Shown here piece after piece: positions 1-48,899 of a stretch of 51,382 nt of DNA. Position 1 is the stretch's first letter. Every line of letters starts with the position of its first letter. The notes beneath the pieces were generated by a model. The model saw nothing but the letters and a program-made list of their open reading frames with translations, was not told the DNA's origin and made no database searches. The stretch comes from Verrucomicrobiia bacterium (GTDB lineage Bacteria; Verrucomicrobiota; Verrucomicrobiia; Chthoniobacterales; CALDSX01): positions 1 through 51,382 of the forward strand of contig DAIRSW010000003.1 of NCBI GenBank assembly GCA_036804205.1. Reading direction: 5' to 3'. Position numbers and translations under genes: made by a program.

Positions 1-21
1 ATTTTGCCTGGCTAATGCCTT

Positions 22-903
22 ATGCAGCGTTGGATTTGGAGAAATATTAGCCTTGAGTTGCCTAAAGAGTGGGAACTTTTGCTTTTTTCTAAGAAGAGAA
101 AGGCAGGAAGCCTCACTTTTGCGGACCGCAAAAAGTACCGTTTGCAGCTGGCGTGGAGAGAGCTCAGTGGTCAACCGGATATACCCCGGATGGCGAGGGA
201 CTATGCGTCACAACTTCTGGCCAAGGATGCCCAATCTCGCCCGCAAGCAGAGCGGGTCGCTGGCTGGTGGGCCATCGGGCATCGTAGCGAGGGGATGAGT
301 TCAACCCGTTACGTCCGTTTTTTTATAGAACAGAATCTGTTGGTGGAAGCGATCGCCCCGCCAACGCCCTTGGCGCGAGATGGCCGCATCTCGGAAGAAG
401 TCTTGCAGTCTGTAAATTTGGAGACCCACCATATGGATGGTTTGGATGAGTGGTCCGCTTTCGGAATGCTCTGGCAAGCCCCCGGTTGCTGGGAATTAAC
501 CTCGGCGCAGGTTCAGCCGGCATCGGTTACCTTGGAGTTTGCTCCTGAAAAAGAAAAAGGAATGTACGACCGGGTAACGCGACGCGGCATGGTTCGCCAT
601 TGGCTGAAGGGAAGTGTCGCCGAGTGGCTGAAGCTGCAGATTCCATCGAACGCCGAGCGGGTGGTTGAAGCGACCCTTGAAAGCGAGGGTGTTAAGCGTT
701 GGAGTGTGAGTGGGCAGGTGAAGCCAAGTAGCTGGGGGCAAGGCGCCCAAGGTTGGAGAAAATTTTCCGCTTTAGCATGGATTTGCCCCGGGGATGGTCG
801 CTTGTTTTGCCATCAACGCATGGAGGGTATGAAGGAAGCGCCACCCGAGGGCTCACTGTGGTCTTGGGCTCGCTCACCAGTGAAGGAGTTCGCTTATGTC
901 TAA
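22..903 (+). CDS. hypothetical protein, first visible gene of the coupled operon
   Basis: 293-aa ATG ORF with no motif I recognise. Its TAA stop (901-903) overlaps the ATG (896) of the next gene by 8 nt. Only 21 nt of upstream sequence are in the window. Confidence 0.55.
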   Translation: MQRWIWRNISLELPKEWELLLFSKKRKAGSLTFADRKKYRLQLAWRELSGQPDIPRMARDYASQLLAKDAQSRPQAERVAGWWAIGHRSEGMSSTRYVRFFIEQNLLVEAIAPPTPLARDGRISEEVLQSVNLETHHMDGLDEWSAFGMLWQAPGCWELTSAQVQPASVTLEFAPEKEKGMYDRVTRRGMVRHWLKGSVAEWLKLQIPSNAERVVEATLESEGVKRWSVSGQVKPSSWGQGAQGWRKFSALAWICPGDGRLFCHQRMEGMKEAPPEGSLWSWARSPVKEFAYV

Positions 904-1312
904 GAGCCAAACGAGCGAAGCGGCAAGCCACGCAGTTCAGGAAGGGCAAGGCGATTGGAATAAATTGCTGAAAGGTTCTTTGTTGCACAACCATGCAGCC
1001 AAAGTGGGGCAACCGGCTGAGGGGTTCTTGCCGATTTCCATCGCTGTCCGTCGTCCGGCCTGGTATGTGCCCCCCCTCACGTGGTTCTTCCGCTTGAGTG
1101 ATCGGCGGGTGGTTAAACTGGATGAATTAGGGCAAAAGATATGGCGACAATGTGATGGGAAAATTAAAATCAGCGAAATGATTGACCAACTTGCAGGTGA
1201 GGAACAACTCACCTTTCATGAAGCGCGCGTGATGCTAACCAGCTATGTGCAACAGTTAGTGGCTCGAGGAGTTGTGGTGGCAGTATTGCATAAACAGGAG
1301 GCAAAATCATGA
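896..1312 (+). CDS. PqqD-family (RiPP-recognition-element-like) small protein
   Basis: 138 aa. The C-terminal ~75 aa (VVKLDELGQKIWRQCDGKIKISEMIDQLAGEEQLTFHEARVMLTSYVQQLVARGVVV) fit the PqqD pattern (Ln.tg..iW.l.DG.rt..ei...l......d..ea..dv..fl..L...gli). An ATGA overlap links it to the downstream permease gene. Confidence 0.6.
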   Translation: MSKSQTSEAASHAVQEGQGDWNKLLKGSLLHNHAAKVGQPAEGFLPISIAVRRPAWYVPPLTWFFRLSDRRVVKLDELGQKIWRQCDGKIKISEMIDQLAGEEQLTFHEARVMLTSYVQQLVARGVVVAVLHKQEAKS

Positions 1313-2763
1313 GTCGCCCTATTGATATTAAGCCTCAGCCAAACTTGGGTCTGACGCGTTTGGCGCAAATGACCTTAAACGGCATCCGCTACCGTCTGTT
1401 TCGCTCACTCGTCACCATGGTTGTGGTGACTGTGGCCATCGCTTTTTTGATGTATATTTTGTCAGAAAGCGTGACCAAACGTTCGATGGTTGAAGTCGGA
1501 ATGGAACGCCTTTCCAATTACCGTCTTGCTTCATTCTGGGCTTCGAAACTCAGCACCCCGGCATCAATGGAAGGGCTCCTTAAGGATTTTGCCCAGGCAT
1601 CCTCCGGTGATCCCGTGTCGTCGGAGTTAGAGTTTTTTGCAAACAGCGATGCATCTGAGGTCGCAGAGCTCTTGCCTGCAGTTCAGCAAGCCCATGGTTT
1701 TTTAGATTTCTTGCGACGACTCGACTATGGGCGACTCCGACTGTTGACCGCTGGCAGGGATACTTTCGAGGTTTTTGAGTTTTTGCGGGAGCCGGAAAAC
1801 TTGGAGAACTTTTTTCAACAAGCCTCGCAAATGGCCACTTTGCGAATGCCATTGAGCAACGATGAGCTCAGCGAGCTTTTATTGGTTTGGCCAAGCATCG
1901 AAGAGTTTTTGCGTCGCACCCGAGAGGGGCAACGTGCAGCTATCGCCGAGCTGCGTGGCAGCTTGGGAGATCGAGGAATGATGGGGGCGCTTTTGGAAGC
2001 TTCTGGTGAGTTTGGGGATACAGTTCGCGGACAGGGTTTTCAACTCAGCGAGGAAACCGCGGTGGCGCTGAGTGAGCAAGCCAACTTGATGATGGTCGAA
2101 GCGCAGGTGCTCGAGCAATTGAACCGCACCGATGTTCGTCAAGCCGCGGCAGTGCGTCTTAATGTGTTGCCTGCTGAAGTCACTCTCGCCGGGATGTGGC
2201 CTCTCTTAAGCTCAGACGCGGGCAGCCGTTGGTGGGTTGAGTCGACCAATATTTCAGAATCGCCCATTATATCCTCGTTGGCTCAGCAGCGTTTGGAAGA
2301 AGATCAATTGGCCGATGTTGAGCCTTTGCAGGCTCAGTTGGAAGGCGGACTTTTCGGAATGGGTGAGCGGGTGACGTGGTTGATCGCCTTATCTATGGTG
2401 GTCTGTGCGGTGGGCATCATGAACGCCATGCTGATGTCGGTGACCGAGCGTTACCGCGAGATTGCGACTTTTAAGTGTTTAGGAGCCTTGGACGGATCAA
2501 TCATGTGGATGTTTGTGATGGAAGCTGCTTTGATTGGCTTAGTCGGGGGTGTTTTAGGTGCTTTTTTGGGGGGGCTATTGGGTGCTTTGGCCATGACCGC
2601 AGGTTTTGGAATGTTAGCTCTGCAAAGCTTGCCTCTTATGCAGATGGTGGTCGCTGGGCTTTGTTGTGTTGCTGCAGGGGCTATTCTCGCGGCGGCTTCG
2701 TCTATTTATCCTTCCTACAAGGCAGCAAGGCTCGCCCCCATGGAAGCTATGCGCATTGATTAA
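1309..2763 (+). CDS. ABC transporter permease, MacB/FtsX type (type VII)
   Basis: 484 aa. It has an N-terminal TM helix (RSLVTMVVVTVAIAFLMYIL), a ~300-aa extracytoplasmic insert, and a C-terminal FtsX-like 3-TM block (MSVTERYREIATFKCLGALDGSIMWMF...SIYPSYKAARLAPMEAMR). Confidence 0.8.
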   Translation: MSRPIDIKPQPNLGLTRLAQMTLNGIRYRLFRSLVTMVVVTVAIAFLMYILSESVTKRSMVEVGMERLSNYRLASFWASKLSTPASMEGLLKDFAQASSGDPVSSELEFFANSDASEVAELLPAVQQAHGFLDFLRRLDYGRLRLLTAGRDTFEVFEFLREPENLENFFQQASQMATLRMPLSNDELSELLLVWPSIEEFLRRTREGQRAAIAELRGSLGDRGMMGALLEASGEFGDTVRGQGFQLSEETAVALSEQANLMMVEAQVLEQLNRTDVRQAAAVRLNVLPAEVTLAGMWPLLSSDAGSRWWVESTNISESPIISSLAQQRLEEDQLADVEPLQAQLEGGLFGMGERVTWLIALSMVVCAVGIMNAMLMSVTERYREIATFKCLGALDGSIMWMFVMEAALIGLVGGVLGAFLGGLLGALAMTAGFGMLALQSLPLMQMVVAGLCCVAAGAILAAASSIYPSYKAARLAPMEAMRID

Positions 2764-2767
2764 GAAC

Positions 2768-3571
2768 ATGACAGCCAACGCTCCTCCTGAAACCTCTCCA
2801 GAGGTTAAAGACCAGACCGCCAAAAAACTGCAAGATGAAGATCGTCGGGTCATCATCCGGACGGTTGGTCTTAAAAAGAGCTACGTGAAAGGCGGCGTAG
2901 AAACGGTGGCCTTAAAAGGCGTGAACGCGGAGATCTATTCAGGAGAGTTTATCTCTGTGATGGGCCCGTCGGGTTCTGGTAAGAGTACGTTCTTTAACAT
3001 GATCGGTGGCCTGGACAGGCCTTCTTTAGGTCGGGTGTTCATTGATGAGGTTGACGTAGCCCAGTTAACTGCCGTGGAGCTGGCCTTTTTGCGATGCCGC
3101 AAGATTGGCTATATTTTCCAAAGCTACAACCTGGTTCAGTACATGACTGCGCTAGAAAACGTGACCATACCGATGACTTTCGCTGGGTTGAATGCCGATG
3201 AAGCGCGGCGTCGAGGTATTGATATTCTGGATACTGTTGGTCTAAAGGAGCGATGGTTTCACCGGCCCATTGAGATGTCTGGAGGCCAGCAGCAGCGAGT
3301 TGCTATTGGCCGGTCGCTGGCGAATCGCCCGGCCATTCTCCTGTGCGATGAGCCGACTGCGAATCTGGATTTGAAGACCGGTCAAGAAATTTTGGAAATC
3401 TTGCAAAGACTCAACAAGGAGCGTGGCGTGACCATTATTTGCGCCACCCATGATCACCGCATGCTGAATATTTGCGATCGTCTCATGTGGATCCGCGATG
3501 GGGAAATTGAGCGTGTGGCGCAACGAAGTGAAGTGGAAATTGAACTAGGCTCGATCGGAGGCGAAGAATGA
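2768..3571 (+). CDS. ABC transporter ATP-binding protein (MacB/LolD/FtsE-like)
   Basis: Walker [10 protein letters not shown], signature [15 protein letters not shown], Walker [13 protein letters not shown] and H-loop ATHD. I chose the ATG at 2768, 4 nt after the permease stop; the tracked ORF start at 2666 would overlap the permease gene by ~100 nt. Confidence 0.9.
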   Translation: MTANAPPETSPEVKDQTAKKLQDEDRRVIIRTVGLKKSYVKGGVETVALKGVNAEIYSGEFISVMGPSGSGKSTFFNMIGGLDRPSLGRVFIDEVDVAQLTAVELAFLRCRKIGYIFQSYNLVQYMTALENVTIPMTFAGLNADEARRRGIDILDTVGLKERWFHRPIEMSGGQQQRVAIGRSLANRPAILLCDEPTANLDLKTGQEILEILQRLNKERGVTIICATHDHRMLNICDRLMWIRDGEIERVAQRSEVEIELGSIGGEE

Positions 3572-6500
3572 TGAATTGTATGAAAATTAGCACCCTAACT
3601 GCGGCGTTATTTCTGGTCGCTTGGGATTCACTCCTCATAGCGCAGGATGTGCCTCCTTTGACCGAGACCGAGCAAGTTGAAGTGGTTGAAGTGGTTGAAG
3701 TGGTTGAGGCGGCAAGTGCTCCATTAGAAGGCCCCCCGGTCAATCCCCAGTTTCTTCAGGATGTGGCTATGCTGACTCAACATCCCCATCGGATGGCTGG
3801 TAGTGTAGGTAACCTGGAGGCTACGGCCCATCTCGAGGAGCGGCTCAAAGAGTTGGGGGCCGAAGTGTTTGTTCAGGATTTTCCGTTAGCAAGACTAGAA
3901 ACAACTCGCTCCGAACTTTTGCAGGGTGGGCAAACTCTCCCTCTCAGTCCGATGCGACCGAATGGGTTGATTCCCCCAAGCACCGGTCCCGCCGGGGTTT
4001 CCGGAACTTTAATCTGGGCCGGAGATGGTCAACGCTCGTCGTACGGTGAGGCCGAGGTGGCCGGATCCATCGTGGTCATAGAAGCCTCTGCAAGCGATGC
4101 GTGGCGAGACGCCTTTCGTATGGGTGCCCAAGCGGTCATTCATGTTCGCAGCGAGGAAATGAGCTCAGCAGATATTCACTTTACGGAAGCCCACGCAAAT
4201 TTCCCTCGGTTTTATTATAACGGAGAGGCCGGTGACCTTGTGTTTGGCGAAGTCGCAACCGTTATCAATGAACAGCGTTGGACCGGTGGTGTCGGGCGAA
4301 ATGTTTTGGGTTTCTTTCCGGGTAGCGATCCCACGTTCTATTTTGGTCAAGAAGAGATGTTCGTCCTAGCGGCGCAGATTGATACGTTTGGTGCGGTTCC
4401 TGAAAAGGTGCGCGGGGCACGCATGGCCGCGAACATGGCCGGAGTACTGCAAATCGCCGAGCAGTGGAAAGAATCTGCGCCTCGGCGACATTTGTTGGTG
4501 GCGTTTCTCAATAATGAAGCCATGGGCTACGAGGGGGCCAGAAGGTTATACCGCAGTCTGGATCAAGACGGCACAACTCTGAATGCGTTGTCTGAGCGCC
4601 GAACCTCGCTCGTTCAGGAGAAAGCGTTCATTCGACAACTCTTGGACACCGTATCTACCGATCATCCAATGGAACTAGCGCATCCAAGTATCTACACCCA
4701 GTTGTTTAACCGGATGCGTTTGGTGACCGATGAAGAAATTGAAAATTCCCGGGCTTCCATGGGCGACATACGCCAGGCGCTTGATCGAATTCAGCGTGCT
4801 AGTCAGGATGGGGAGGTTGACGAAGCTCGGGCTGCGCCCTTAAGGGCAGAATTAGAGACCTTTCAGGAGCCACACTTGCGGCTCAATGATTTTCGGCGTG
4901 AACTCGCAACCCGAACTCTAGCCCCCCCAACTGAGGACGCCAACTACGCGCGGATTTTGAATATAGTCAGGCAAGAGCTGGGCACGCGTTCTGAGGAGTT
5001 AATTCTCGAGGAGCGTGCCCTTGAACACGACTCACGCATCTCGCAGGAGCTTGGGAAATATCGCATAGCACTGCATGCGACCGTAAACTATGGCAACGGC
5101 ACCGAACGCTGGGGACTGCATTTTGGAGGCAGCTCTCTGCAACGGTCGCTACGTGATCTGCCGGGTTTGTATAGTAGAGTGCTTTCTGTTTTCCGTGCTT
5201 GTGGTGAGAAGTTGCTCGAAAACGGGGCTCCGGTTGATAACTTTGAACGTAGCCTAACTTCGCCAGGCAGCCAATTGTTTGGGGGCGGGCGACTGATCCA
5301 TGGGGGCGAGATTGCTGGTCGCTACGGGGTCTTTAATTTTGTGTTGGGAACAGTATTCGACTTTTTCCCTAAAGATGGAACGCCAGCCGATGTGGTTGAA
5401 AACTTGGATCTCGCGACCATCGAAACTCAAATGAACTCGACAGGCTTGGTATTGGCGGAAGCTGCTAACCGGGAAGGCTTGTCGCTCAACTCGCCAATCG
5501 TCCGAGTGGTGCACTATTCTGAGCCACGCTTTCGCGACAGCAGGGTGACCGGATCGCTAGTTCTGCGTCGCACCCGAGGAAGTCCAACGGCCAACCGCTC
5601 GGCCATCGGAGCTGTGGTTGGTGTCTACCCAAGAAATCCCCAGGTCTTTAATCGTGGCTCACACGATCATCTGGGAGTTAGCATGAACAAGAGCAATATG
5701 TTTGTAGATTTGCAGGTGCAGCTGGTGAACGCGAATGGGGCCATCATGTTCGGCCCCGTTGACCCCTTGGCTAAACCAGGCTTAGGGATTGCGGCGCTGT
5801 TTAATGATTCCGGCCAGGTGGAGGCCATGACGGATCGAGTTTCCATAGCCGACGTCTCAAATCGATTAAATTTGTTTGTATCCAGGGGAGGGGCATTGAT
5901 CGCTCCACCCCATGTCCTGCCCAGTTTTTCTTTGGTCATGAACGGGCGGACCAACAGCGAGCTTGACGGTGCCCGGTCGATGTTCACAACACAGGATGGC
6001 GTCGTCTATTGGTATTCCGAAGCCAAGGTAGACTGGATTAAAGTTTTTGGCACCAGCTCAGTCGTGGCACTGAATATGGAGAGTGAAACAGGACAAGGCT
6101 TGTATGGCTCGGGGCTTCCACAAGGCGATGGGGGGTGGATCTTTCCTAGGCTCAACCAGCTCGGAGCCAATGACCTTTTGTCTATTAATGAGGAGCGATT
6201 GGAAACTGTAAGAAGCCGTGGCGTTTCAAACCTTTCTGTTGAGGAGCTGCACGCCAGGGCTGAGGACCTCAATCGTTTCGCGGAAGAGAGCCCCACTGTT
6301 GCCCGGAGCGAGGCGCTGCACACCTCCGCTTTTTTAGGAGCAATGCCGGTTTATCTAAACACCCGTCAGAACCTCGATGACTTGGTGCGATCCGTCTTGG
6401 TGCTGCTGGCTTTGGCGGTGCCATTTGCTTTTGCTTTGGAACGTCTCCTGATTGGATCACCCAGTATCTACCGACAACTGAGTTGGTTTACCGGCTTCTT

Positions 6501-8454
6501 CATCGCGGTATTTTTGTTGTTATACTTTACACATCCAGCGTTTGCAGTCTCTAATGCGCCGCTTATTATTTTCTTGGGCTTTACGATCATTACATTGTCG
6601 GTTTTGGTAATCTATATCATCATGCAGAAGTTTGAGGTGGAACTCAAACACTTGCAGGGAGTGGCCAGCACCGTGCATAGTGCTGATGTTTCGCGATTTA
6701 GTACGATGCTTGCTGCCATGACCATGGGCATTTCTACCATGCGACGTCGTCCGGTGCGAACGGCGCTAACCGCTACTACGATTATTCTGTTAACTTTCAC
6801 TATTTTGTGTTTTGCATCGTTCGGAGGCGCTCTTGGAGTCACTACACGATTTATCGGGCCTCTCCCTGGCCATGAAGGTGCCTACATTCATCGGATCAAT
6901 TGGGGACCTCTTGACCCCGCTCTGCAAGACACTCTAAAATACCGCTGGGAAGGGGAAGAAAAAGTGACGGGGCGATACTGGTTATCTCCGATGACGGTAG
7001 ACTCTCCCGCCCCCACGCTCGGGCAGGCTGATGGCACGAACCCAGTGGTGATTCAAGGTTTGTTGGGTCTTGACCAGGAAGAGTTGGAGCATCGGGACGA
7101 CCTCCGCGAGATCGTGCAGCAGGACGGAGTGCCATTCGACCAGGGTATATGGCTTAGCGAAGCAACCGGCAACTCCATGCAAGTGGAGGTCGGCGATGCC
7201 GTTCGTCTCAACGGGCGAGAGCTTACTGTGGCAGGCTTGTTTGATGCGAGTGCCTTTGCCGCAATTAGGGATATGGATGGCAGTAGTATCTTACCAGTGG
7301 ATTTTCTTGCCATGGAGCAGCTGTTACCTGAGGCACTTGACGACTCCGAAGGTTCCGGCGGTGCAATGAGCTGGGAGGTCTTGGCCCCAGATGGGGTTGT
7401 CATCGTATCGGCAGAAGTAGCACGTCAAATGGACGCCAGTCTGAGAGCCATTACCATTTACGCTGAAGACACCACCACAGCGACCAGGGTCGCCGAGGAT
7501 ACGGCGCGGCTTTTAGGGATCCCAATAGCTGGAACCCGCGAGGACAGTGTATACTACCACCGCTTTGGTACAACCTTAGCTGCAACCGGTTTGGGGGACT
7601 TGGTGATGCCGATTATCCTGGGTGGACTGGTGGTCTTTGGCACGATGTTAGGTTCTGTTGCAGATCGCGAGAAAGAGATTTACACATTTAGCGCGCTGGG
7701 CTTAGCCCCTCCCCACGTGGCAAGTTTGTTTTTCGCTGAAGCCCTAGTCTTTTCTGTCATAGGCGGACTAGGAGGTTACCTGACGGCGCAAGCTGTTTTG
7801 GAAGGGCTTAAATTTTTAGCGACTCTAGGTTTAGCAGTAGTCCCTGAAATCAATTATTCATCAACCAACTCGATCATCACGATTCTTATCGTGATGGGTA
7901 CTGTTATGATCTCTGCTGTGTATCCGGCGATAAAGGCCTCCCGCAGCGCCAACCCTGGAGTGATGCGATCATGGCAGTTGCCTGCGCCGGAAGGCGATGT
8001 CATGAAAATCGTCTTTCCTTTCACCGTATCCAGCTACGACATCACTGGTGTGGTGAGTTTCTTGAAGGAACACTTCGACAACTTCAAAGACACCAGCCTG
8101 GGGAGCTTTTTAGCTCGAAAAACGCGATTGCAGCTCGCTGATGCTGAACCACTGGGCATCGACTCGGAGTTAGCGCTGGCTCCATTTGACCTTGGCGTGA
8201 CTCAAAAATTCTCGCTTCGGAGTGCTCCGAGTGAGATTCCTGGAATCGATGAAGTTACCATCCGGTTGGAGCGTTTGTCCGGGCAGCCTAAAGACTGGAA
8301 GCGATTAAACAAAATTCTGTTGGATGATCTACGGAAACAATTTCTTATCTGGCGTTCGCTGCCAGAAGAAACCATGGAGCAATACCGCGAGCGGACCCTC
8401 CTCGCGCGAACCCAGCCTAGCCAGACAGATACCGAGGAAGAAAGCAACTCATGA
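3568..8454 (+). CDS. giant fusion protein: signal peptide + M28/PA-like (apparently degenerate) ectodomain + extra TM helices + MacB/FtsX-type permease module + ~165-aa C-terminal tail
   Basis: 1628 aa.
- N-terminal signal-like helix: MKISTLTAALFLVAWDSLLIAQ.
- aa ~60-330 resemble an M28 peptidase with a PA insert (HPHRMAGSVGNLEATAHLEERLKELG...; NVLGFFPG...VLAAQIDTFG...GARMAANMAGVLQIAE...VAFLNNEAMGYEGARRLY).
- TM cluster at aa ~985-1030.
- FtsX N-terminal helix from aa 1058 (MRRRPVRTALTATTIILLTFTILCFASFGG).
- ~300-aa loop, then an FtsX 3-TM block (SVADREKEIYTFSALGLAPPHVASLFFAEALVFSVIGGLGGY...VYPAIKASRSANP).
- ATGA overlaps at both ends of the gene. Confidence 0.8.
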   Translation: MMNCMKISTLTAALFLVAWDSLLIAQDVPPLTETEQVEVVEVVEVVEAASAPLEGPPVNPQFLQDVAMLTQHPHRMAGSVGNLEATAHLEERLKELGAEVFVQDFPLARLETTRSELLQGGQTLPLSPMRPNGLIPPSTGPAGVSGTLIWAGDGQRSSYGEAEVAGSIVVIEASASDAWRDAFRMGAQAVIHVRSEEMSSADIHFTEAHANFPRFYYNGEAGDLVFGEVATVINEQRWTGGVGRNVLGFFPGSDPTFYFGQEEMFVLAAQIDTFGAVPEKVRGARMAANMAGVLQIAEQWKESAPRRHLLVAFLNNEAMGYEGARRLYRSLDQDGTTLNALSERRTSLVQEKAFIRQLLDTVSTDHPMELAHPSIYTQLFNRMRLVTDEEIENSRASMGDIRQALDRIQRASQDGEVDEARAAPLRAELETFQEPHLRLNDFRRELATRTLAPPTEDANYARILNIVRQELGTRSEELILEERALEHDSRISQELGKYRIALHATVNYGNGTERWGLHFGGSSLQRSLRDLPGLYSRVLSVFRACGEKLLENGAPVDNFERSLTSPGSQLFGGGRLIHGGEIAGRYGVFNFVLGTVFDFFPKDGTPADVVENLDLATIETQMNSTGLVLAEAANREGLSLNSPIVRVVHYSEPRFRDSRVTGSLVLRRTRGSPTANRSAIGAVVGVYPRNPQVFNRGSHDHLGVSMNKSNMFVDLQVQLVNANGAIMFGPVDPLAKPGLGIAALFNDSGQVEAMTDRVSIADVSNRLNLFVSRGGALIAPPHVLPSFSLVMNGRTNSELDGARSMFTTQDGVVYWYSEAKVDWIKVFGTSSVVALNMESETGQGLYGSGLPQGDGGWIFPRLNQLGANDLLSINEERLETVRSRGVSNLSVEELHARAEDLNRFAEESPTVARSEALHTSAFLGAMPVYLNTRQNLDDLVRSVLVLLALAVPFAFALERLLIGSPSIYRQLSWFTGFFIAVFLLLYFTHPAFAVSNAPLIIFLGFTIITLSVLVIYIIMQKFEVELKHLQGVASTVHSADVSRFSTMLAAMTMGISTMRRRPVRTALTATTIILLTFTILCFASFGGALGVTTRFIGPLPGHEGAYIHRINWGPLDPALQDTLKYRWEGEEKVTGRYWLSPMTVDSPAPTLGQADGTNPVVIQGLLGLDQEELEHRDDLREIVQQDGVPFDQGIWLSEATGNSMQVEVGDAVRLNGRELTVAGLFDASAFAAIRDMDGSSILPVDFLAMEQLLPEALDDSEGSGGAMSWEVLAPDGVVIVSAEVARQMDASLRAITIYAEDTTTATRVAEDTARLLGIPIAGTREDSVYYHRFGTTLAATGLGDLVMPIILGGLVVFGTMLGSVADREKEIYTFSALGLAPPHVASLFFAEALVFSVIGGLGGYLTAQAVLEGLKFLATLGLAVVPEINYSSTNSIITILIVMGTVMISAVYPAIKASRSANPGVMRSWQLPAPEGDVMKIVFPFTVSSYDITGVVSFLKEHFDNFKDTSLGSFLARKTRLQLADAEPLGIDSELALAPFDLGVTQKFSLRSAPSEIPGIDEVTIRLERLSGQPKDWKRLNKILLDDLRKQFLIWRSLPEETMEQYRERTLLARTQPSQTDTEEESNS
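3676..3708 (+). repeat. in-frame 9-bp tandem repeat (GTTGAAGTG x3 plus a partial copy) encoding (VEV)n
   Basis: Read directly: gttgaagtg gttgaagtg gttgaagtg gttgag, just after the predicted signal peptide of the giant protein. Confidence 0.9.
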
Positions 8455-10451
8455 CCAAGCCAAAAGAAAAAGTCGAAAGGGTCGATCGCGAGGTCGAAGA
8501 GTTTCGCAACATGATGCAGGTGCCCTCCACTTTTGAGGACGGGTTCAATTGGCTGTCGCTCATGGGCGCTTTGTTCATCGCGTTTGTGATGATTCCGGGC
8601 TCGATTTACATGGGCTTGCTGGCGGGCGAACAAAACATTGGCCCGGCGGCTCAGTGGGTGACGGTGATTCTGTTCCTTGAGGTAGCTCGACGGGCGCAAA
8701 GAAATCTTAAAAAACCCGAAATCTTCACCCTCTTTTTTATGGCGGGTGCGGCGATGCAATTGCCGTTCTCGGGACTGATCTGGCATCAGTATTACATGCA
8801 AAGCGATGCCGCGCTGGCTTACGGCATCGCAGAGCACCTGCCGGACTGGTTCGCTCCGCCGGCAGACTCGGAGTCCTACGCCCTGCGCACGTTTTTTCAC
8901 CCCGATTGGTTGCCGGTCATTTTTCTGGTTATCTTCAGCACTTTTTTTGGCCAACTCAGCAACTTGGTTCTTGGCTATGGGCTGTTTCGCTTGACCAGTG
9001 ACATTGAAAAGTTGCCATTTCCCATGGCCCCTATTGGAGCTCAAGGGATGACCGCTTTGGCTGAGGATGTGGATGAAACCAATGCGGGAACCAACGAGCG
9101 ATCCTGGCGATGGCGGGTGTTTTCCATCGGAGGAGCAATAGGACTATTCTTTGGAGCCATTTATCTTGGTCTCCCGACCATAACCGGCATGATCACCGGC
9201 ACGCCGATCATGATTTTCCCGATTCCCTTCGTGGATTTGACCGACAAAACGCAGGGCATTCTCCCGGCTGTAGCGACAGGTATCACTTGGGATCTCGGTA
9301 ACCTCATCATCGGTATGGTGCTCCCATTCTTTGCCATGCTGGGAAGTTTTATCGGCTTGTTGATGACTTTTGTCGCCAACCCGATTTTGTATGAATTCCA
9401 AATTCTGAACTCGTGGTTGCCGGGTGATAACTTGGTAGTCACCACCTTTAAAAATAACATCGATTTTTATTTTAGCTTCACGATTGGGGTCTCCCTGGCG
9501 ATTGCAATAGCTGGTTTTTGGGAGGTCTATGTTGGGATGAAAAAGCGAGCCCGGCAGGCCAGGGACAAGTCGATGGTGATTAACACCTCTGCGCCACCAG
9601 GACGTGGGGATATCAAGCCATGGATTATTATTGGCTGCTACTTTTTTGTCACGGCCGCTTACATCACTGTGTCGGGCTTCTTGATTGGGTGGCATCCTGG
9701 GGTGATGATAGCTCTGCTCTTCTTTGGATTTGTCTACACTCCTTTGATTAGTTATGTCACTGCACGTTTGGAGGGGATTGCCGGGCAGGTGGTTGAAATT
9801 CCAATGATCCGTGAGGCCAGCTTGATCCTCAGTGGATATCAAGGGGTTAAGGTGTGGTTTTTGCCGCTCCCGGTGGCTAACTATGGCATTATGACGGTGC
9901 AGTATCGTATGGCCGAGCTGACCGGAACCAAATTCATTAGTCTTTGGAAAACTAAGTTGGTCCTGTATCCTATCATTCTGGGTTCTTCGATCCTGTTCGC
10001 GAGCTTTATTTGGAGTTTGGCTGAGGTTCCATCCTCTGTTTACCCATTTGCCCAGAAAATGTGGGAACTCGAAGCCATGAACCGGTCGATCATCTATTCA
10101 GCGACGCTCGGAGAGTACAGTCTTTTTGAGGATGCCTTCCGTTGGGACTATCTTGGCTGGGGCGCAGGATTTGGTGTTCTCTTATTTGGCGTTCTGAATG
10201 GGGTGGGCGCACCGATTTTTCTCACCTATGGAGTGGTGCGAGGTCTTGGGCAGAGTTTGCCCCAAATGATCATCCCTCAAATGATTGGTGCCCTGATTGG
10301 CAAATACTACTTCCAGAAGAAGCTAGGGCTAAAATGGAGGCAATACGTGCCGGTTGTCGCGGCGGGCTTCTTGTGCGGCACAGGACTTGTGACCGTCGCA
10401 AGTGTTGGGATAAACTTCTTGAGTAAAGCCGTAATCCAACTGCCTTTTTAG
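8451..10451 (+). CDS. polytopic membrane protein, OPT-superfamily-like (putative peptide transporter)
   Basis: 666 aa with more than 12 hydrophobic segments. KLPFPMAPIGAQGMTAL resembles the OPT L-x-FPSG-x-A motif, and MAELTGTKFISLWKTKL resembles the OPT D-x-K-T-G-x-L-x-G-x-x-P-x-x-Q segment. An ATGA overlap links it to the giant gene. The family call is tentative. Confidence 0.5.
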   Translation: MTKPKEKVERVDREVEEFRNMMQVPSTFEDGFNWLSLMGALFIAFVMIPGSIYMGLLAGEQNIGPAAQWVTVILFLEVARRAQRNLKKPEIFTLFFMAGAAMQLPFSGLIWHQYYMQSDAALAYGIAEHLPDWFAPPADSESYALRTFFHPDWLPVIFLVIFSTFFGQLSNLVLGYGLFRLTSDIEKLPFPMAPIGAQGMTALAEDVDETNAGTNERSWRWRVFSIGGAIGLFFGAIYLGLPTITGMITGTPIMIFPIPFVDLTDKTQGILPAVATGITWDLGNLIIGMVLPFFAMLGSFIGLLMTFVANPILYEFQILNSWLPGDNLVVTTFKNNIDFYFSFTIGVSLAIAIAGFWEVYVGMKKRARQARDKSMVINTSAPPGRGDIKPWIIIGCYFFVTAAYITVSGFLIGWHPGVMIALLFFGFVYTPLISYVTARLEGIAGQVVEIPMIREASLILSGYQGVKVWFLPLPVANYGIMTVQYRMAELTGTKFISLWKTKLVLYPIILGSSILFASFIWSLAEVPSSVYPFAQKMWELEAMNRSIIYSATLGEYSLFEDAFRWDYLGWGAGFGVLLFGVLNGVGAPIFLTYGVVRGLGQSLPQMIIPQMIGALIGKYYFQKKLGLKWRQYVPVVAAGFLCGTGLVTVASVGINFLSKAVIQLPF

Positions 10452-10478
10452 GCCGCAGTCTAACCAATCCAAAAGCTA

Positions 10479-11204
10479 GTGAGCAAAGACGTTTTAATTG
10501 AAGTACGAGAGCTAAGTAAGGTGTTTAACCTTGGCAAGATCGTGGTGCGCGCCTTAGACGACATTCATCTTGATATTTTTCGCTCGGAGTATCTTTCCAT
10601 TATGGGTCCTTCGGGATCAGGAAAGAGCACCCTCTTTAACATGGTCGGAGCCCTGGATCGTCCGTCCACAGGGCACGTAACAGTCGCATCTGTCGATCTT
10701 ACCAAGCTCAGTAGTCGTGAGTTGGCCTATTTTCGGGGTAACCACATTGGATATATCTTCCAGAGTTACAATTTAATTCCAGCTTACACAGCCATAGATA
10801 ACGTAGCCATGCCCCTCCTCTTTAGTGGTGTTGGTCTTGAGGCTGCTCATGAACGCGCTAAGGAAGTCCTCACTCGGGTGGGTCTTGGCCATCGGATGGA
10901 CCATCGTCCGGGTGAGCTTTCTGGTGGGCAGCAACAGCGTGTAGCCATTGCACGCGCTTTGGCAAACCGTCCGGCCATCATTTTGGCGGATGAGCCTACC
11001 GCTAACCTGGATTTGAAAACAGGGGAGGAGATTATTGGGTTGCTTCAAGAGTTGTGTCACGAAGAAAAAGTGACCATCATTACCGCAACTCACGACCATA
11101 AAATGCTGGCCGCTTCGGATCGTATTGTGTGGATCAAGGACGGCAGAATCGATAAGGTTCAAACGGCAGCTGAAGCGAATATTAAAGTTGGTGCAGTGCA
11201 CTAA
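10479..11204 (+). CDS. ABC transporter ATP-binding protein (MacB/LolD/FtsE-like), paralog of 2768..3571
   Basis: GTG start. Walker [36 protein letters not shown] and ATHD. It is closely similar along its length to the first ATPase. Confidence 0.9.
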
Positions 11205-11281
11205 ACACCGACCGGCAAATATTGGCCTGGGTTCTAAACGTCCAGGTTGCAGGTGAAGGCGTTACCAGGCAAAGTAATGCT

Positions 11282-13465
11282 ATGGGTTTCCAACTTTCCA
11301 GCCACTACACACCGCAAGGCGACCAAGGCCGAGCGATTGAGCAGCTGTGCCGCTCGTTGGCTGCAGACAACCGCCACCAAACCCTTTTGGGCGTTACGGG
11401 CAGTGGGAAGACATTTACGGTGGCAAACGTCCTTCAGGAAATGGAGCGCCCAACCCTGATTATTTCTCACAACAAAACCTTGGCGGCCCAGCTCTACTCG
11501 GAGTTTAAGCAGTTCTTTCCCCACAACGCGGTTGAGTATTTTGTGAGCTACTTTGACTATTACCAACCGGAAGCATACATCCCCCGCACCGACACCTATA
11601 TCGAAAAGGATTCGGCGATTAACGAAGAAATTGAGAGGCTTCGACTGTCGGCCACCAGCGCTCTTCTAACCAGGAGGGATGTGATTGTTGTCGCCAGTGT
11701 TTCGTGCATTTACGGTTTAGGTTCACCGGATGATTACCAGCAGATGATGTATCCTATCAGCGCGGGTCAAAGTCTTTCACGAGAGACGTTTTTGTCTCAA
11801 TTGGTGGAAATGTTGTATGAGCGCAACGACATTGCTTTTAGTCGAGGAAAATTTCGAGTCCGCGGGGATGTGGTGGAGGTCCACCCTGCGCAGTTGGATG
11901 AAGAAGGCATCCGGGTGGAGTTTTTTGGAGACGAGGTCGATCGTTTGAGTCGTTTTGACCCACTGACCGGAGATGTGATTGAGCAGGTCAAGGTGGCAAC
12001 TTTTTTCCCGGCCAAGCAGTTTGTGACTCCGCAGGACAAGTTGCGGGCGGCCATGACTAGCATTCGTCAGGAACTCACCGAGCGGGTGGCCTGGTTCGAG
12101 AAAGAAGGCAAGCTTTTGGAAGCCCAGAGGATCAAGATGCGCACAGAGTATGACCTGGAGATGATGCAGGAGATGGGATTTTGCAATGGTATTGAAAACT
12201 ATTCACGCCATCTAACCGGACGTCCACCCGGAGCGCGTCCTTACACTCTCCTGGATTTCTTTCCAGATGATTTTGTGACTGTGATTGACGAATCGCATGC
12301 CACCATTCCTCAGATTGGCGGCATGTATGAAGGCGACCATTCCCGGAAAATGGTGTTGGTCGACCATGGGTTTCGCTTGCCCAGCGCCTTGGATAATCGC
12401 CCTCTGCGTTTCCCAGAGTTTATGGGCATGACCAAGCAGTTACTGTATGTGAGCGCGACACCAGCAGAGTTTGAGTTGGTGAATAGCCGGGTGGGGATTA
12501 CGGACTACATTCCACATCGCCGGGATCGGGTGGGTCAGGAGGAGCCCATCCCAGCAGCTTTGCCTGGCCTAGGTGGTGAAAGCTCGGTTTTCGATCCTCT
12601 AACGCCTGGATCCCCACTGGTGGTGGAGCAAATCATTCGGCCTACGGGCTTACTTGATCCAGTGGTCCAGATTCGTCCGTTAAAAGGGCAGATCGACGAA
12701 ACGATTGAGCTATGCCGACAGCGGGTCGAGAAGGGACAGCGTGTTTTGATCACAACGCTAACCAAGCGCACGGCTGAGGACCTTGCTGATTACTTGCGCG
12801 ATGTCGGCCTCAAGGTGAGATACCTGCACAGCGAAATTGACACGATCGAACGGGTTGAAATCCTTCGTGCCTTGAGGAGGGGCGAGTTTGATATCCTGGT
12901 CGGGATCAATTTGTTGCGAGAAGGCTTAGACCTGCCGGAGGTGAGCTTGGTCTGCATACTGGACGCGGACAAAGAAGGCTATCTGCGAAGCCGAACATCT
13001 CTGATTCAGACTGCGGGCCGAGCTGCGCGTCATATTGACGGTCAAGTGATGTTATTCGCGGATTCCGTTACCGAGAGTATGCAAGCCTTAATCGACGTGT
13101 CAGATTACCGCAGGGCAAGGCAGCAAGCATATAATGAGGAGCACGGCATCACTCCTCAAAGCGTGGTGCGTGGTGAACAGGAGAGTCTTCACATGATTTT
13201 AAAAGGCAAAGCTCGCCAGGTCGAAGCCTCGGTTATTCAGGAAGCGGGGGGTGATTTTGATGTGCAAGAGCTGATCCGCGAGCTTTCGCAAGAAATGGAA
13301 GAGGCCTCTGGCAAGTTGGAGTTCGAGCGGGCGGCACTTTTGCGGGATCAAATTAATGAGTTGCAGGGAGGGCAGGTAAGCGGCAAAAGTCAGGTCAGCT
13401 ACAGAAAGACCAGTGGCAGACTTGGCAGGAGTAGTGGTGGCGGACGACGGAAGGCGAAAGCGTAA
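11282..13465 (+). CDS. uvrB: excinuclease ABC subunit B
   Basis: [26 protein letters not shown]-like block, [35 protein letters not shown], and a C-terminal UVR motif ([17 protein letters not shown]). I chose the ATG at 11282 over the tracked TTG at 11222. Confidence 0.95.
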
Positions 13466-47768: not shown

Positions 47769-48899
47769 ATGAGTTCTGATAATGTACCCGTAGTTTTGCC
47801 ACCGCCCAAGAGACCATTGAAGGTGGTGGTTGCTTGTGGAGGAACAGGGGGCCACTTGTTTCCTGGTCTGGCCGTCGCGCAGGTTTTGCACGATCGCGGT
47901 CACGAACTCTTAATTTTCATCAGCGAGAAGCCTATCGATACATTGGCGGCAAAAGAGGCGGATCATTTTGAGTATCGACGGCTGGCTGCGATCGGGCTGC
48001 CGAAAGGCTTGTCTTGGCAGCATGTGATATTTTGGATGCGTTTGCAGGAGAGCATTGGGCAGTGTCAGAAAATTTATCGGGAGTTTCAACCCGATGCGAT
48101 TTTGGGAATGGGCGGCTTTACATCCCTAGCGCCAGCCTGGGCGGGCCGTAGGCAAAAAAAACCGGTGCTTTTGCACGAGAGCAACGTCATTCCTGGCAAA
48201 GCCAACCGATTTGGAGCTCGATTTGCCACGCGGATCTTGGTCGGCTTTGAAGAATGTAAGAAAGCCTTTTCCAATCGTCCGGTCACAGTAACCGGAACAC
48301 CGATTCGCGCGAAAGTAAAAAGGCGACCGGATCCAGAGGAGGCTTGGGATTTCTTTAAGTTACAACCTGATCGCCCGGTTCTTTTGGTGATGGGCGGCAG
48401 TCAAGGGGCCCATGGGGTAAACCAGTTGTTAGTCCGGATGCTTCCCAAGCTGGCTACCGAAGGATGGCAGGCCATCCATTTCACCGGAGCACAGGATGAA
48501 CGGTTCGTCGCAGAAAATTACCGTCGAGCAGAGATGCCCGCGTTTGTAGCGGCGTTTTCTGATCGGGTGGAGCTGGCCTACGCAATCTCGCGAGTGGCCA
48601 TTGCCCGTGCCGGAGCGGCAAGTTTAGCAGAGCTTTCTTATTGGGGCATTCCAACCACGCTAATCCCGTATCCGTTCGCGGCGGACGATCATCAGACCGT
48701 GAATGCCGAAATCGCAGTAGCCGCCGGTGGAGCATTTGCCGCTACCGAAGCTCAGACCAGCCCGGACGACCTTGTCCGAATGGTTCAGCAAATGCATGAA
48801 GCGGGCACCCATCATCGAATGAGTCAAAGCATGAAAAGTCTCTGCCCCGCCGATGCAGATTGGAACGTGGCACACGCAGTAGAAGAGGCGGCTGGATGA
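47769..48899 (+). CDS. murG: undecaprenyldiphospho-muramoylpentapeptide beta-N-acetylglucosaminyltransferase
   Basis: VVVACGGTGGHLFPGLAVA, VMGGSQGA and ARAGAASLAEL. I chose the ATG at 47769 over the tracked TTG at 47760. Confidence 0.92.
   Translation: MSSDNVPVVLPPPKRPLKVVVACGGTGGHLFPGLAVAQVLHDRGHELLIFISEKPIDTLAAKEADHFEYRRLAAIGLPKGLSWQHVIFWMRLQESIGQCQKIYREFQPDAILGMGGFTSLAPAWAGRRQKKPVLLHESNVIPGKANRFGARFATRILVGFEECKKAFSNRPVTVTGTPIRAKVKRRPDPEEAWDFFKLQPDRPVLLVMGGSQGAHGVNQLLVRMLPKLATEGWQAIHFTGAQDERFVAENYRRAEMPAFVAAFSDRVELAYAISRVAIARAGAASLAELSYWGIPTTLIPYPFAADDHQTVNAEIAVAAGGAFAATEAQTSPDDLVRMVQQMHEAGTHHRMSQSMKSLCPADADWNVAHAVEEAAG

Follow-up and report, generated by a model that had tools for sequence, protein, structure and literature searches.

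The type VII ATP-binding cassette (ABC) systems, represented by FtsEX-EnvC, LolCDE-LolA, MacAB-TolC, BceAB and YbbAP-TesA, perform mechanical work in the periplasm and do not pass a substrate through their own helices, and this mechanotransmission is the accepted hallmark of the group (bioRxiv 10.1101/2025.05.16.654284). The locus described here is located on contig DAIRSW010000003.1 of a Verrucomicrobiia bacterium, in a window of 51,382 nucleotides (nt) that corresponds to the whole stretch of DNA analysed. The module studied is composed of seven open reading frames (ORFs) of the plus strand, at positions 22-11204, which encode successively a soluble protein here named p293, a protein resembling PqqD and the RiPP recognition element (RRE; RiPP, ribosomally synthesized and post-translationally modified peptide), a small FtsX-type permease, a first ATPase, a giant permease, a protein resembling the OPT transporters and a second ATPase. 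We give an even chance to the reading in which these seven ORFs, together with a DUF6785/DUF6784 gene that precedes them, constitute one module conserved in the Planctomycetes-Verrucomicrobia-Chlamydiae (PVC) group and encode a composite type VII (MacB/FtsX-type) ABC envelope machine, and the best reading assigns it to the housekeeping functions of the envelope rather than to a natural-product pathway. Searches of the literature by DUF names or by combinations of domain names found no account of this cluster (a Planctopirus paper merely lists FtsE and FtsX among divisome proteins), in agreement with the original prediction that the gene content is unlike any described cluster type. The component families are known; their combination and its phylum-wide conservation appear to be undescribed.

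The original prediction described seven same-strand ORFs with overlapping or closely spaced junctions, read as one coupled operon, and the ORFs and the geometry of all their junctions were reproduced from the sequence (Table 1). The start codon ATG 896 lies within the last codons of the preceding gene, which ends with TAA 901-903 (overlap of 8 nt), and ATGA overlaps are present at 1309, 3568 and 8451. The two gaps comprise 4 nt (2764-2767) ahead of ATG 2768 and 27 nt (10452-10478) ahead of GTG 10479. Within the module region, promoter-like and terminator-like consensus sites are not more frequent than in shuffled sequence. The overlaps and the short gaps support a single coupled operon. The extent of this operon had nevertheless to be corrected: the seven coupled genes stand, but base 22 is not its start, as an eighth gene, cut by the edge of the window, precedes them. 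Indeed, the first bases of the window (Table 1) are equal to the C-terminus "...NILPG" of a gene found at 7093-9120 of locus L001, a 56.6-kb contig from the Verrucomicrobiales metagenome-assembled genome (MAG) GCA_050329435.1 that contains the same locus by exact-sequence match, and a spacer of 6 nt separates this gene from the first ORF. In L001, the upstream gene encodes a protein of 675 amino acids (aa) that displays the Pfam domains DUF6785 (E=1.7e-74) and DUF6784 (E=4.6e-17). Beyond it are found a doubtful 91-codon ORF, a tRNA-Thr gene (6634-6709, minus strand), yajC and metabolic genes. The 91-codon ORF (L001 6821-7096), publicly annotated as a gene, has an ATGA overlap with the start of DUF6785; lacking both a family match and detectable conservation, it is unlikely to be a true gene. 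The operon promoter should be localized around L001 6821-7096, downstream of tRNA-Thr.

To follow the module in other organisms, a scan with one genome per species was realized by alignment of the OPT-like and giant proteins. At least 479 relatives were obtained and the best 80 loci were fetched; synteny was scored by tblastn with all cluster proteins, the denominators given below being the loci long enough for each position. All the 80 loci come from PVC-group organisms or from Omnitrophota, with a spread over Verrucomicrobiota, Kiritimatiellia, Lentisphaeria, Planctomycetota and Omnitrophota, and one cultured carrier, Oligosphaera ethanolica DSM 24202, is among them. The first relatives of the giant protein, few and recovered with a word-index search, also show the same neighbours, in a Joint Genome Institute (JGI) contig and in a Sumerlaeia MAG. 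The core order small FtsX permease, ATPase 1, giant permease, OPT-like protein and ATPase 2 is nearly invariant: the OPT-like gene is immediately preceded by the giant gene in 60 of 60 loci and followed by an ATPase gene in 62 of 66 loci, ATPase 1 is 5' of the giant in 56 of 57 loci and the small FtsX permease gene is upstream in 54 of 55 loci. This co-linearity of the core genes is far beyond chance, and the homologs are co-localized across phyla in the 80 loci, against the condition by which the original prediction would have been refuted. The position of the other genes is variable. The PqqD gene directly precedes either the small FtsX gene or DUF6785. Ahead of PqqD can stand p293, or DUF6785 followed by p293; alternatively, DUF6785 is inserted between PqqD and the small FtsX gene, or is located after ATPase 2, where p293 comes next in L022 alone. 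In the Planctomycetales (L057 and L074) the order is permuted and the genes are still together. At the loci with an apparent loss of p293, a truncated ORF at the edge corresponds to its C-terminal half. Across the 80 loci, we have detected neither a conserved flanking gene (among ORFs of at least 45 aa) nor the coding signal of an upstream small ORF; very short ORFs devoid of conservation would escape this search.

The identity to the window proteins reaches 60-85% for the OPT-like protein and 65-84% for the ATPases (70-84% across phyla for the orthologs of ATPase 1). In the giant, it is of 50-65% in the transmembrane (TM)/FtsX region, 60-76% in the C-terminal domain and 28-45% in the ectodomain, which is its least conserved part. 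These alignments indicate a fast evolution of the ectodomains and a very strong conservation of the parts located in the membrane and the cytoplasm. The sole recurrent interruption of the core order is observed in six loci, including L027 (7344-7877), L053, L059 and L066, where the gene of a 23S rRNA-intervening-sequence protein of about 175 aa (PF05635, E=9e-22) lies between the OPT-like gene and ATPase 2. In two cases, two copies of the cluster are present per MAG (L024 and L052 in NYZC01; L035 and L046 in VGYV01), and these could represent a true duplication, a strain mixture or a bin contamination.

The two ATPases contain the Walker A, LSGGQ/MSGGQ, Walker B (DEPT) and H-loop motifs, visible in the sequence, and ATPase 1 has an N-terminal extension. 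As originally proposed, they are paralogs of the MacB/LolD type: ABC_tran is present in both, they are 53% identical and each paralog is kept across phyla. Their top NCBIfam models are LolD, MacB, DevA, DarD, FtsE and YbbA (184-237 bits), all below the equivalog cut-offs. Thus, the LolD scores are of 210 bits for ATPase 1 and 237 bits for ATPase 2 (cut-off 308), the FtsE scores of 194 and 202 bits (cut-off 265) and the DarD scores of 200-208 bits (cut-off 375). The presence of two FtsX-type permease modules is likewise established, both passing the gathering score of PF02687 (25.5 bits), and the two modules are 30% identical over 139 residues. The permease scores come nowhere near the cut-offs of the Lol, MacB and FtsX models, with 21-31 bits for the NCBIfam FtsX models (cut-offs 225-255) and 45.7 bits for the lolCE model (cut-off 362). 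According to hydropathy, the small permease is composed of a conserved N-terminal peptide (IDIxxQPxLS), TM1, an extracytoplasmic domain of about 300 residues and TM2-4. Its family profile matches MacB, LolF, LolC/E, YtrF and FtsX (E down to 8e-20), on residues ~320-490 only.

Concerning the giant permease, the fusion of a pseudo-peptidase with a permease announced by the original prediction is confirmed, the M28/PA similarity being significant by family profile and not by the window protein alone, for which the match with PDB 2ek8 (E=0.046) is short of significance. The profile, built with the first ~380-400 residues of 18 giant orthologs (379 profile positions), recovered in the PDB sequences the M28 and PA aminopeptidase 2ek8 (E=3.3e-15, profile positions 23-309), YwaD (1.6e-8), nicastrin (2.4e-7) and the transferrin receptor (2.6e-7); the alignment with nicastrin reaches about residue 354 of the giant. 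With Pfam, 12 of these 18 orthologs match PF04389, two match Nicastrin and one matches PA. In the remainder of the ectodomain (residues ~351-935) no other family match was found. The metal-ligand columns aligned with 2ek8 were then inspected in 64 orthologs, the check covering the His, the bridging Asp, the catalytic Glu and a ligand Glu, with the two C-terminal ligands located outside the mapping. The His is retained by 6 orthologs and the ligand Glu by 7, a single ortholog has the catalytic Glu, none (0 of 64) has the bridging Asp, and the bridging-Asp column is preceded by a nearly invariant Arg. Because these ligand columns are lost across the 64 orthologs, the alignment indicates that the M28/PA head is a dead peptidase in the whole family.

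After the ectodomain, hydropathy and the alignment place a cytoplasmic linker between the three extra TM helices of the giant and its FtsX TM1. The FtsX domain is matched by 18/18 orthologs, whereas MacB_PCD (PF12704) is matched by 3/18 and reaches 19.8 bits in the window protein for a gathering score of 27; the PDB matches of this MacB-like module are 5xu1, MacB and LolF. The C-terminal domain is also found in distant giants (about 28% identity) that stand alone. These proteins, in L004 (7270-11733), L005 and L006 (3055-7767), resemble the window giant in their M28 head and C-terminal domain, and their loci lack paired ATPase genes as well as the OPT-like, PqqD and p293 genes. In L004 and L005, the gene of the distant giant diverges from that of an ordinary MacB_PCD/FtsX permease. 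Because their neighbours are unrelated, the distant giants are uninformative on the function of the module. Just past the signal peptide of the window giant, a 9-bp in-frame tandem repeat GTTGAAGTG (V-E-V) is present at 3676-3707 in 3.6 copies; more copies, with variant units, are found in L001 (12665-12910), and in L002 the site (5813-6120) is an unresolved run of N. Either the copy number of this repeat is polymorphic or the site is unstable in assembly.

The OPT-like protein is the most conserved component, with more than 4236 homologs, the best 120 of which are at least 65% identical; the top homologs span Verrucomicrobia, Planctomycetota, Phycisphaerae and others. Taken alone, the window protein scores 20.4 bits with PF03169, below the gathering score of 25.8, whereas 22 of its 27 close relatives match this family (E up to 1, best E=1.9e-10). 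Its AlphaFold2 model (87 sequences; predicted local distance difference test (pLDDT) 77.6, predicted template modelling score (pTM) 0.81) has only one credible match with Foldseek, barley YS1/HvYS1 (7wst/7wsr; E~4e-9, TM-score 0.64/0.70). The relatives and the predicted fold therefore confirm the initial OPT-like call, and the protein of 666 aa is, as modelled, a divergent member of the OPT/YSL fold. Its gene is indeed placed between the giant permease and an ATPase gene. A paralogy between DUF6785 and the OPT-like protein was considered and is not claimed: the BLASTP alignment is weak (E=0.018), although it includes the common motif E(K/Q)LP(F/Y)P, the hhalign probabilities are of 0.4% and 4%, and no PF03169 match was found among DUF6785 members.

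The protein p293 has no transmembrane segment and no signal peptide according to hydropathy, and no match in Pfam, NCBIfam or the PDB sequences, even by family profile. A word-indexed search returned p293 alone, and an exhaustive HMMER search was required to detect its relatives. The family so defined contains 488 representative clusters, without sequence relatives outside it. From the AlphaFold2 model (67 sequences; pLDDT 90.5, pTM 0.86), Foldseek recovered PsbP (E=1.5e-5, TM-score by target 0.50-0.59) and further BT_1490, Tsi3/TplEi, DcrB, the Eag chaperone SciW and Mog1, all with a probability of 1.0. The PsbP/Mog1/DUF1795-like fold serves binding rather than catalysis. Most of the relatives display a His and the pattern C-P-x-D-G-R ... 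L-x-C-C (columns of residues 224, 255-260 and 279-282), which probably forms a structural metal site; the window p293 lacks the His of column 224 and the terminal CC. The possibility of a catalytic triad (Cys-His-Asp) similar to that of lasso B2 proteases was rejected on two grounds, the absence in the window protein of the near-invariant His and of the terminal CC, and a fold that is neither papain-like nor transglutaminase-like.

The PqqD/RRE-like assignment of the second protein is significant, its score being above the gathering score of PF05402 (Table 1); the NCBIfam matches to PqqD families are weak. This soluble protein, devoid of signal peptide, has a conserved N-terminal extension of about 60 residues in the ortholog alignment (W..ML.A.P.RN.AA ... 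RP.W.VPP(I/L)SW). The p293 and PqqD genes are neighbours in the loci. In some genomes p293 is naturally fused with a complete PqqD-like protein (P0245, 426 aa; P0240, 507 aa), and for this reason the two proteins probably work as one cytoplasmic binding unit. Neither p293 nor PqqD has similarity with the C-terminal domain of the giant.

An ATP-driven envelope machine, as suggested by the original prediction, is the most economical reading of this conserved module with two motors. A single machine is favoured because the order is nearly invariant, the genes are coupled, both ATPase paralogs are kept, p293 and PqqD are fused in some genomes and the genomic context is of housekeeping type. In this machine, the binding and hydrolysis of ATP by the two ATPases would be passed via the FtsX helices to the periplasmic domains, the two permeases being powered as a heterodimer comparable to LolC/LolE or as two homodimers. 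By analogy with nicastrin or EnvC, the motion may drive the dead-peptidase head, acting as a receptor or clamp for a periplasmic peptide or protein terminus. By analogy with its family, the OPT-fold protein, and perhaps also the DUF6785 protein, would be the inner-membrane path of a peptide-like ligand. On the cytoplasmic face, the RRE/PsbP-like pair would bind this ligand, or a conserved tail of the machine, and would gate or target the process. A peptide-like ligand is proposed because of the OPT family, the aminopeptidase-like pocket and the RRE.

Several points weigh against such a machine. The peptide- or protein-like nature of the ligand would be deduced solely from these family analogies. 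To our knowledge, the OPT transporters are proton-coupled secondary carriers and have no known ABC partner. The cluster contains no outer-membrane or periplasmic adaptor gene. The extracytoplasmic domain of the small permease matches neither PDB sequences nor known families, and the C-terminal domain of the giant has no PDB-sequence or Pfam match. The DUF6785 gene, linked to the cluster in 35 of the 46 full-length loci, is absent from the locus in the 11 others, mostly Lentisphaeria, and p293 and PqqD are unlinked in few genomes (e.g. L011). Because they are missing from some loci or unlinked there, DUF6785, p293 and PqqD may be accessory parts.

Among the other explanations, a PVC counterpart of FtsEX-EnvC is the one that survives best, and we regard it as unlikely. 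In this scheme the dead M28/PA head, switched by the ABC motors, would turn on or place a cell-wall hydrolase whose gene lies elsewhere; the peptidoglycan peptides thus set free would be taken up by the OPT-like protein and sensed in the cytoplasm by the RRE pair. Permeases and ATPases indeed belong to the type VII class, the degenerate peptidase domain with its neighbouring helical insert recalls the logic of EnvC, which is a degenerate LytM protein, the OPT family carries oligopeptides, and a core-genome-like conservation suits a cell-wall function. However, no hydrolase gene is conserved beside the cluster, the FtsE and FtsX cut-offs are widely missed, the head is of M28/PA type and not LytM, and the presence of two motors with extra membrane proteins is foreign to FtsEX.

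An extractor of the LolCDE, DevBCA, HrtBA or YbbAP type, which would pull a lipoprotein, a glycolipid or another hydrophobic molecule from the inner membrane, is an improbable reading. It would see in the permeases a heterodimer similar to LolC/LolE and in the DUF1795-like protein a shield for hydrophobic segments. LolD, DevA and YbbA are among the top models of the ATPases, the giant has weak NCBIfam matches to DevC and ADOP, two different permeases in one operon recall LolC/LolE, and the fold of p293 is common to the Eag/SciW chaperones, which bind transmembrane helices, and to DcrB and LpqN, which are both lipoprotein-like. Nevertheless, the scores with lolCE and LolD are far from their cut-offs, neither a LolA-like carrier nor a membrane-fusion protein is encoded in the cluster, and the OPT-fold protein, the RRE and the aminopeptidase-like head are left unexplained. 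An FtsEX-EnvC-like role or a Lol/Dev/YbbAP-like role is a possible specific function inside the same general mechanism.

A mere juxtaposition of independent transporters, with one MacB-like efflux pump, another pump and a peptide importer of the OPT type, is very improbable. Each type of module works alone in other bacteria, and the distant giants occur without the other genes, but the co-linearity is near-perfect from Verrucomicrobiota, Kiritimatiellia and Lentisphaeria to Planctomycetota and Omnitrophota, the overlaps of translational coupling tie the genes, the OPT-like gene is wedged between permease and ATPase, and the genes are still together in the rearranged Planctomycetales loci. Finally, a cluster for the export of, or immunity to, a RiPP or another peptide natural product, with precursor and maturase outside the window, deserves hardly any credit: the cluster does encode a PqqD/RRE-like protein, its ATPases are similar to DarD, the ATPase of the darobactin exporter, and some peptides are exported by MacB-type pumps, but the DarD cut-off is missed, the cross-phylum conservation is unlike that of patchy biosynthetic clusters, neither the cluster nor the 10 kb upstream in L001 contains a radical S-adenosylmethionine (rSAM) enzyme, YcaO, lasso B2/C protein, cyclase, lanthipeptide synthetase (LanM) or C39 peptidase, and the precursor or maturase that, according to the original prediction, might lie just outside the window gives way to the DUF6785/DUF6784 gene, tRNA-Thr, yajC and metabolic genes, so that, with no conserved flank and with housekeeping neighbours, a RiPP-type role of the RRE-like protein is unlikely and the explanation by a RiPP pathway can largely be set aside.

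Few conserved multi-gene envelope systems are still without function, and the module considered here as one envelope machine is common to Verrucomicrobiota (including Kiritimatiellia and Lentisphaeria) and Planctomycetota, phyla with a debated cell envelope and with ecological and medical relevance. If the proteins form one complex, type VII ABC motors would partner a secondary-transporter fold, the uses of the RRE would extend beyond RiPP biosynthesis, and bacteria would have an analogue of the reuse of a dead aminopeptidase as receptor in nicastrin and the transferrin receptor. A more specific proposal, which we consider doubtful, is that of a trans-envelope class belonging to the PVC core genome, in which two type VII motors would have a physical coupling with channels of the OPT fold and with a head similar to nicastrin, and which an RRE/DUF1795-like pair would serve. 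If true, it would be a new class of trans-envelope handling of peptides or proteins, with the first non-RiPP task of an RRE and the first ABC-coupled OPT protein, and the system would possibly be essential and linked to the unusual cell plan of the PVC group. More than 400 ortholog sets exist for coevolution analysis, and O. ethanolica DSM 24202 is a cultured carrier.

Table 1. Features of the module in the window, with the evidence for each assignment.
Feature	Position	Strand	Evidence
DUF6785/DUF6784 polytopic membrane protein gene, 3' end (eighth module gene)	1..15	+	codons ILPG and stop
p293, soluble protein with two predicted tandem PsbP/Mog1/DUF1795-like alpha/beta sandwich domains	22..903	+	predicted fold
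PqqD/RRE-like protein, 138 aa	896..1312	+	PF05402 31.5 bits, gathering score 23.4
Small FtsX-type permease, 484 aa	1309..2763	+	Pfam FtsX E=3e-18, 66.4 bits
ATPase 1, 267 aa, MacB/LolD/FtsE class	2768..3571	+	ABC_tran E=2.2e-29
Giant permease, 1628 aa	3568..8454	+	signal peptide, M28/PA ectodomain, TM helices, FtsX module, C-terminal domain
Giant: predicted Sec signal peptide, residues 1-26 (...LLIA/QD)	3568..3645	+	hydrophobic residues 7-25; putative cleavage site
Giant: predicted M28 and PA pseudo-peptidase module, residues ~60-350	3745..4617	+	ortholog profile against PDB sequences
Giant: rest of ectodomain, residues ~351-935, with variable helical insert and beta-rich segments	4618..6372	+	alignment
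Giant: three extra TM helices, residues 939-1018, highly conserved	6382..6621	+	hydropathy; invariant columns 938-1031
Giant: MacB-like module with TM1, periplasmic core-like domain, TM2-4 and coupling-helix motif DREKEIYTFSALG	6745..7968	+	FtsX 32.2 bits
Giant: conserved cytoplasmic C-terminal domain, residues ~1470-1612	7975..8403	+	25 invariant alignment columns
Predicted OPT/YSL-fold polytopic membrane protein, 666 aa	8451..10451	+	PF03169 in relatives; predicted fold
ATPase 2, 241 aa, GTG start, MacB/LolD/FtsE class	10479..11204	+	ABC_tran E=7.4e-34

The next gene 3' of the module is uvrB (11222-13465), unrelated to it, and the window continues with DUF502, prfC, an erythromycin-esterase-like gene, the F1Fo ATP synthase operon and miaA. 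The genomic setting of the cluster is a housekeeping neighbourhood. Elsewhere in the window, an ORF of 779 aa (48860-51199) encodes a MurC-MurB fusion (MurC-like Mur ligase domains, FAD_binding_4 and MurB_C). Between 32653 and 37708, four same-strand ORFs (313, 250, 497 and 614 aa) may constitute another ABC-type envelope module; the last one, which is the only ORF scanned, is a DUF4340 protein (E=2e-43).

Compared with the known type VII ABC systems, the module shares the FtsX permease with four helices, the large extracytoplasmic domain between TM1 and TM2, the ATPases of the MacB/LolD/FtsE class, the coupling-helix motif E/D-R-x-(K/R)-E-I-x-x-x-x-x-x-G and a periplasmic partner domain that is expected to move on ATP hydrolysis. 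It differs by its two distinct permeases and two distinct ATPases, by a giant enlarged with three TM helices, with about 930 residues of N-terminal ectodomain and with a cytoplasmic C-terminal domain, and by a small permease whose extracytoplasmic domain shows no match with the Porter/Sabre type. The genes of a membrane-fusion protein, LolA or EnvC are lacking, and the neighbours are an OPT-fold protein, a DUF6785/6784 protein and two cytoplasmic binding proteins. Considering the individual systems, the HlyD-type adaptor gene that neighbours MacAB-TolC is found neither in the cluster nor in the upstream 10 kb or the conserved flanks, and the LolC/E and LolD equivalog cut-offs that define LolCDE are missed. 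FtsEX-EnvC shares with the module an ABC motor and a catalytically dead peptidase-fold domain beside a helical segment, whereas the presumed dead domain of the module is M28/PA and not LytM (M23), is fused in cis to the permease, and the equivalog scores are not reached.

The components recall other families. As in nicastrin (gamma-secretase), the transferrin receptor and GCPII, the giant has a membrane-anchored M28 domain with a PA/apical insert and loss of metal ligands. Nicastrin and the transferrin receptor act as receptors rather than enzymes, and by analogy the same use is proposed for the head of the giant, which differs in being bacterial and fused to an ABC permease, without a detected presenilin-like protease partner. 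With the OPT/YSL transporters (barley YS1, PDB 7wst), the OPT-like protein shares the fold of the whole protein, a weak PF03169 match and the motif L-P-(F/Y)-P, but it is only 13-14% identical, lies inside an ABC operon and is extremely conserved in the PVC group. The RRE systems (PqqD, lasso B1, RRE maturases) accompanied by MacB-type exporters (DarBCD) also place a PqqD-fold protein beside MacB-type ABC genes; the module, in contrast, has neither precursor nor maturase, the partner of its RRE is the non-enzymatic p293 and its distribution is core-genome-like. Finally, each half of p293 has the predicted alpha/beta sandwich of Eag/DUF1795 (SciW, EagT6), PsbP, Mog1, DcrB and Tsi3/TplEi, the tandem arrangement is similar to that of TplEi and BT_1490, and the Eag chaperones are also without signal peptide. 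The p293 family is distinguished from this group by the lack of sequence similarity and of type VI secretion system context, by its RRE partner and, in most relatives, by the addition of a probably metal-binding Cys/His motif (C-P-x-D-G-R ... CC).

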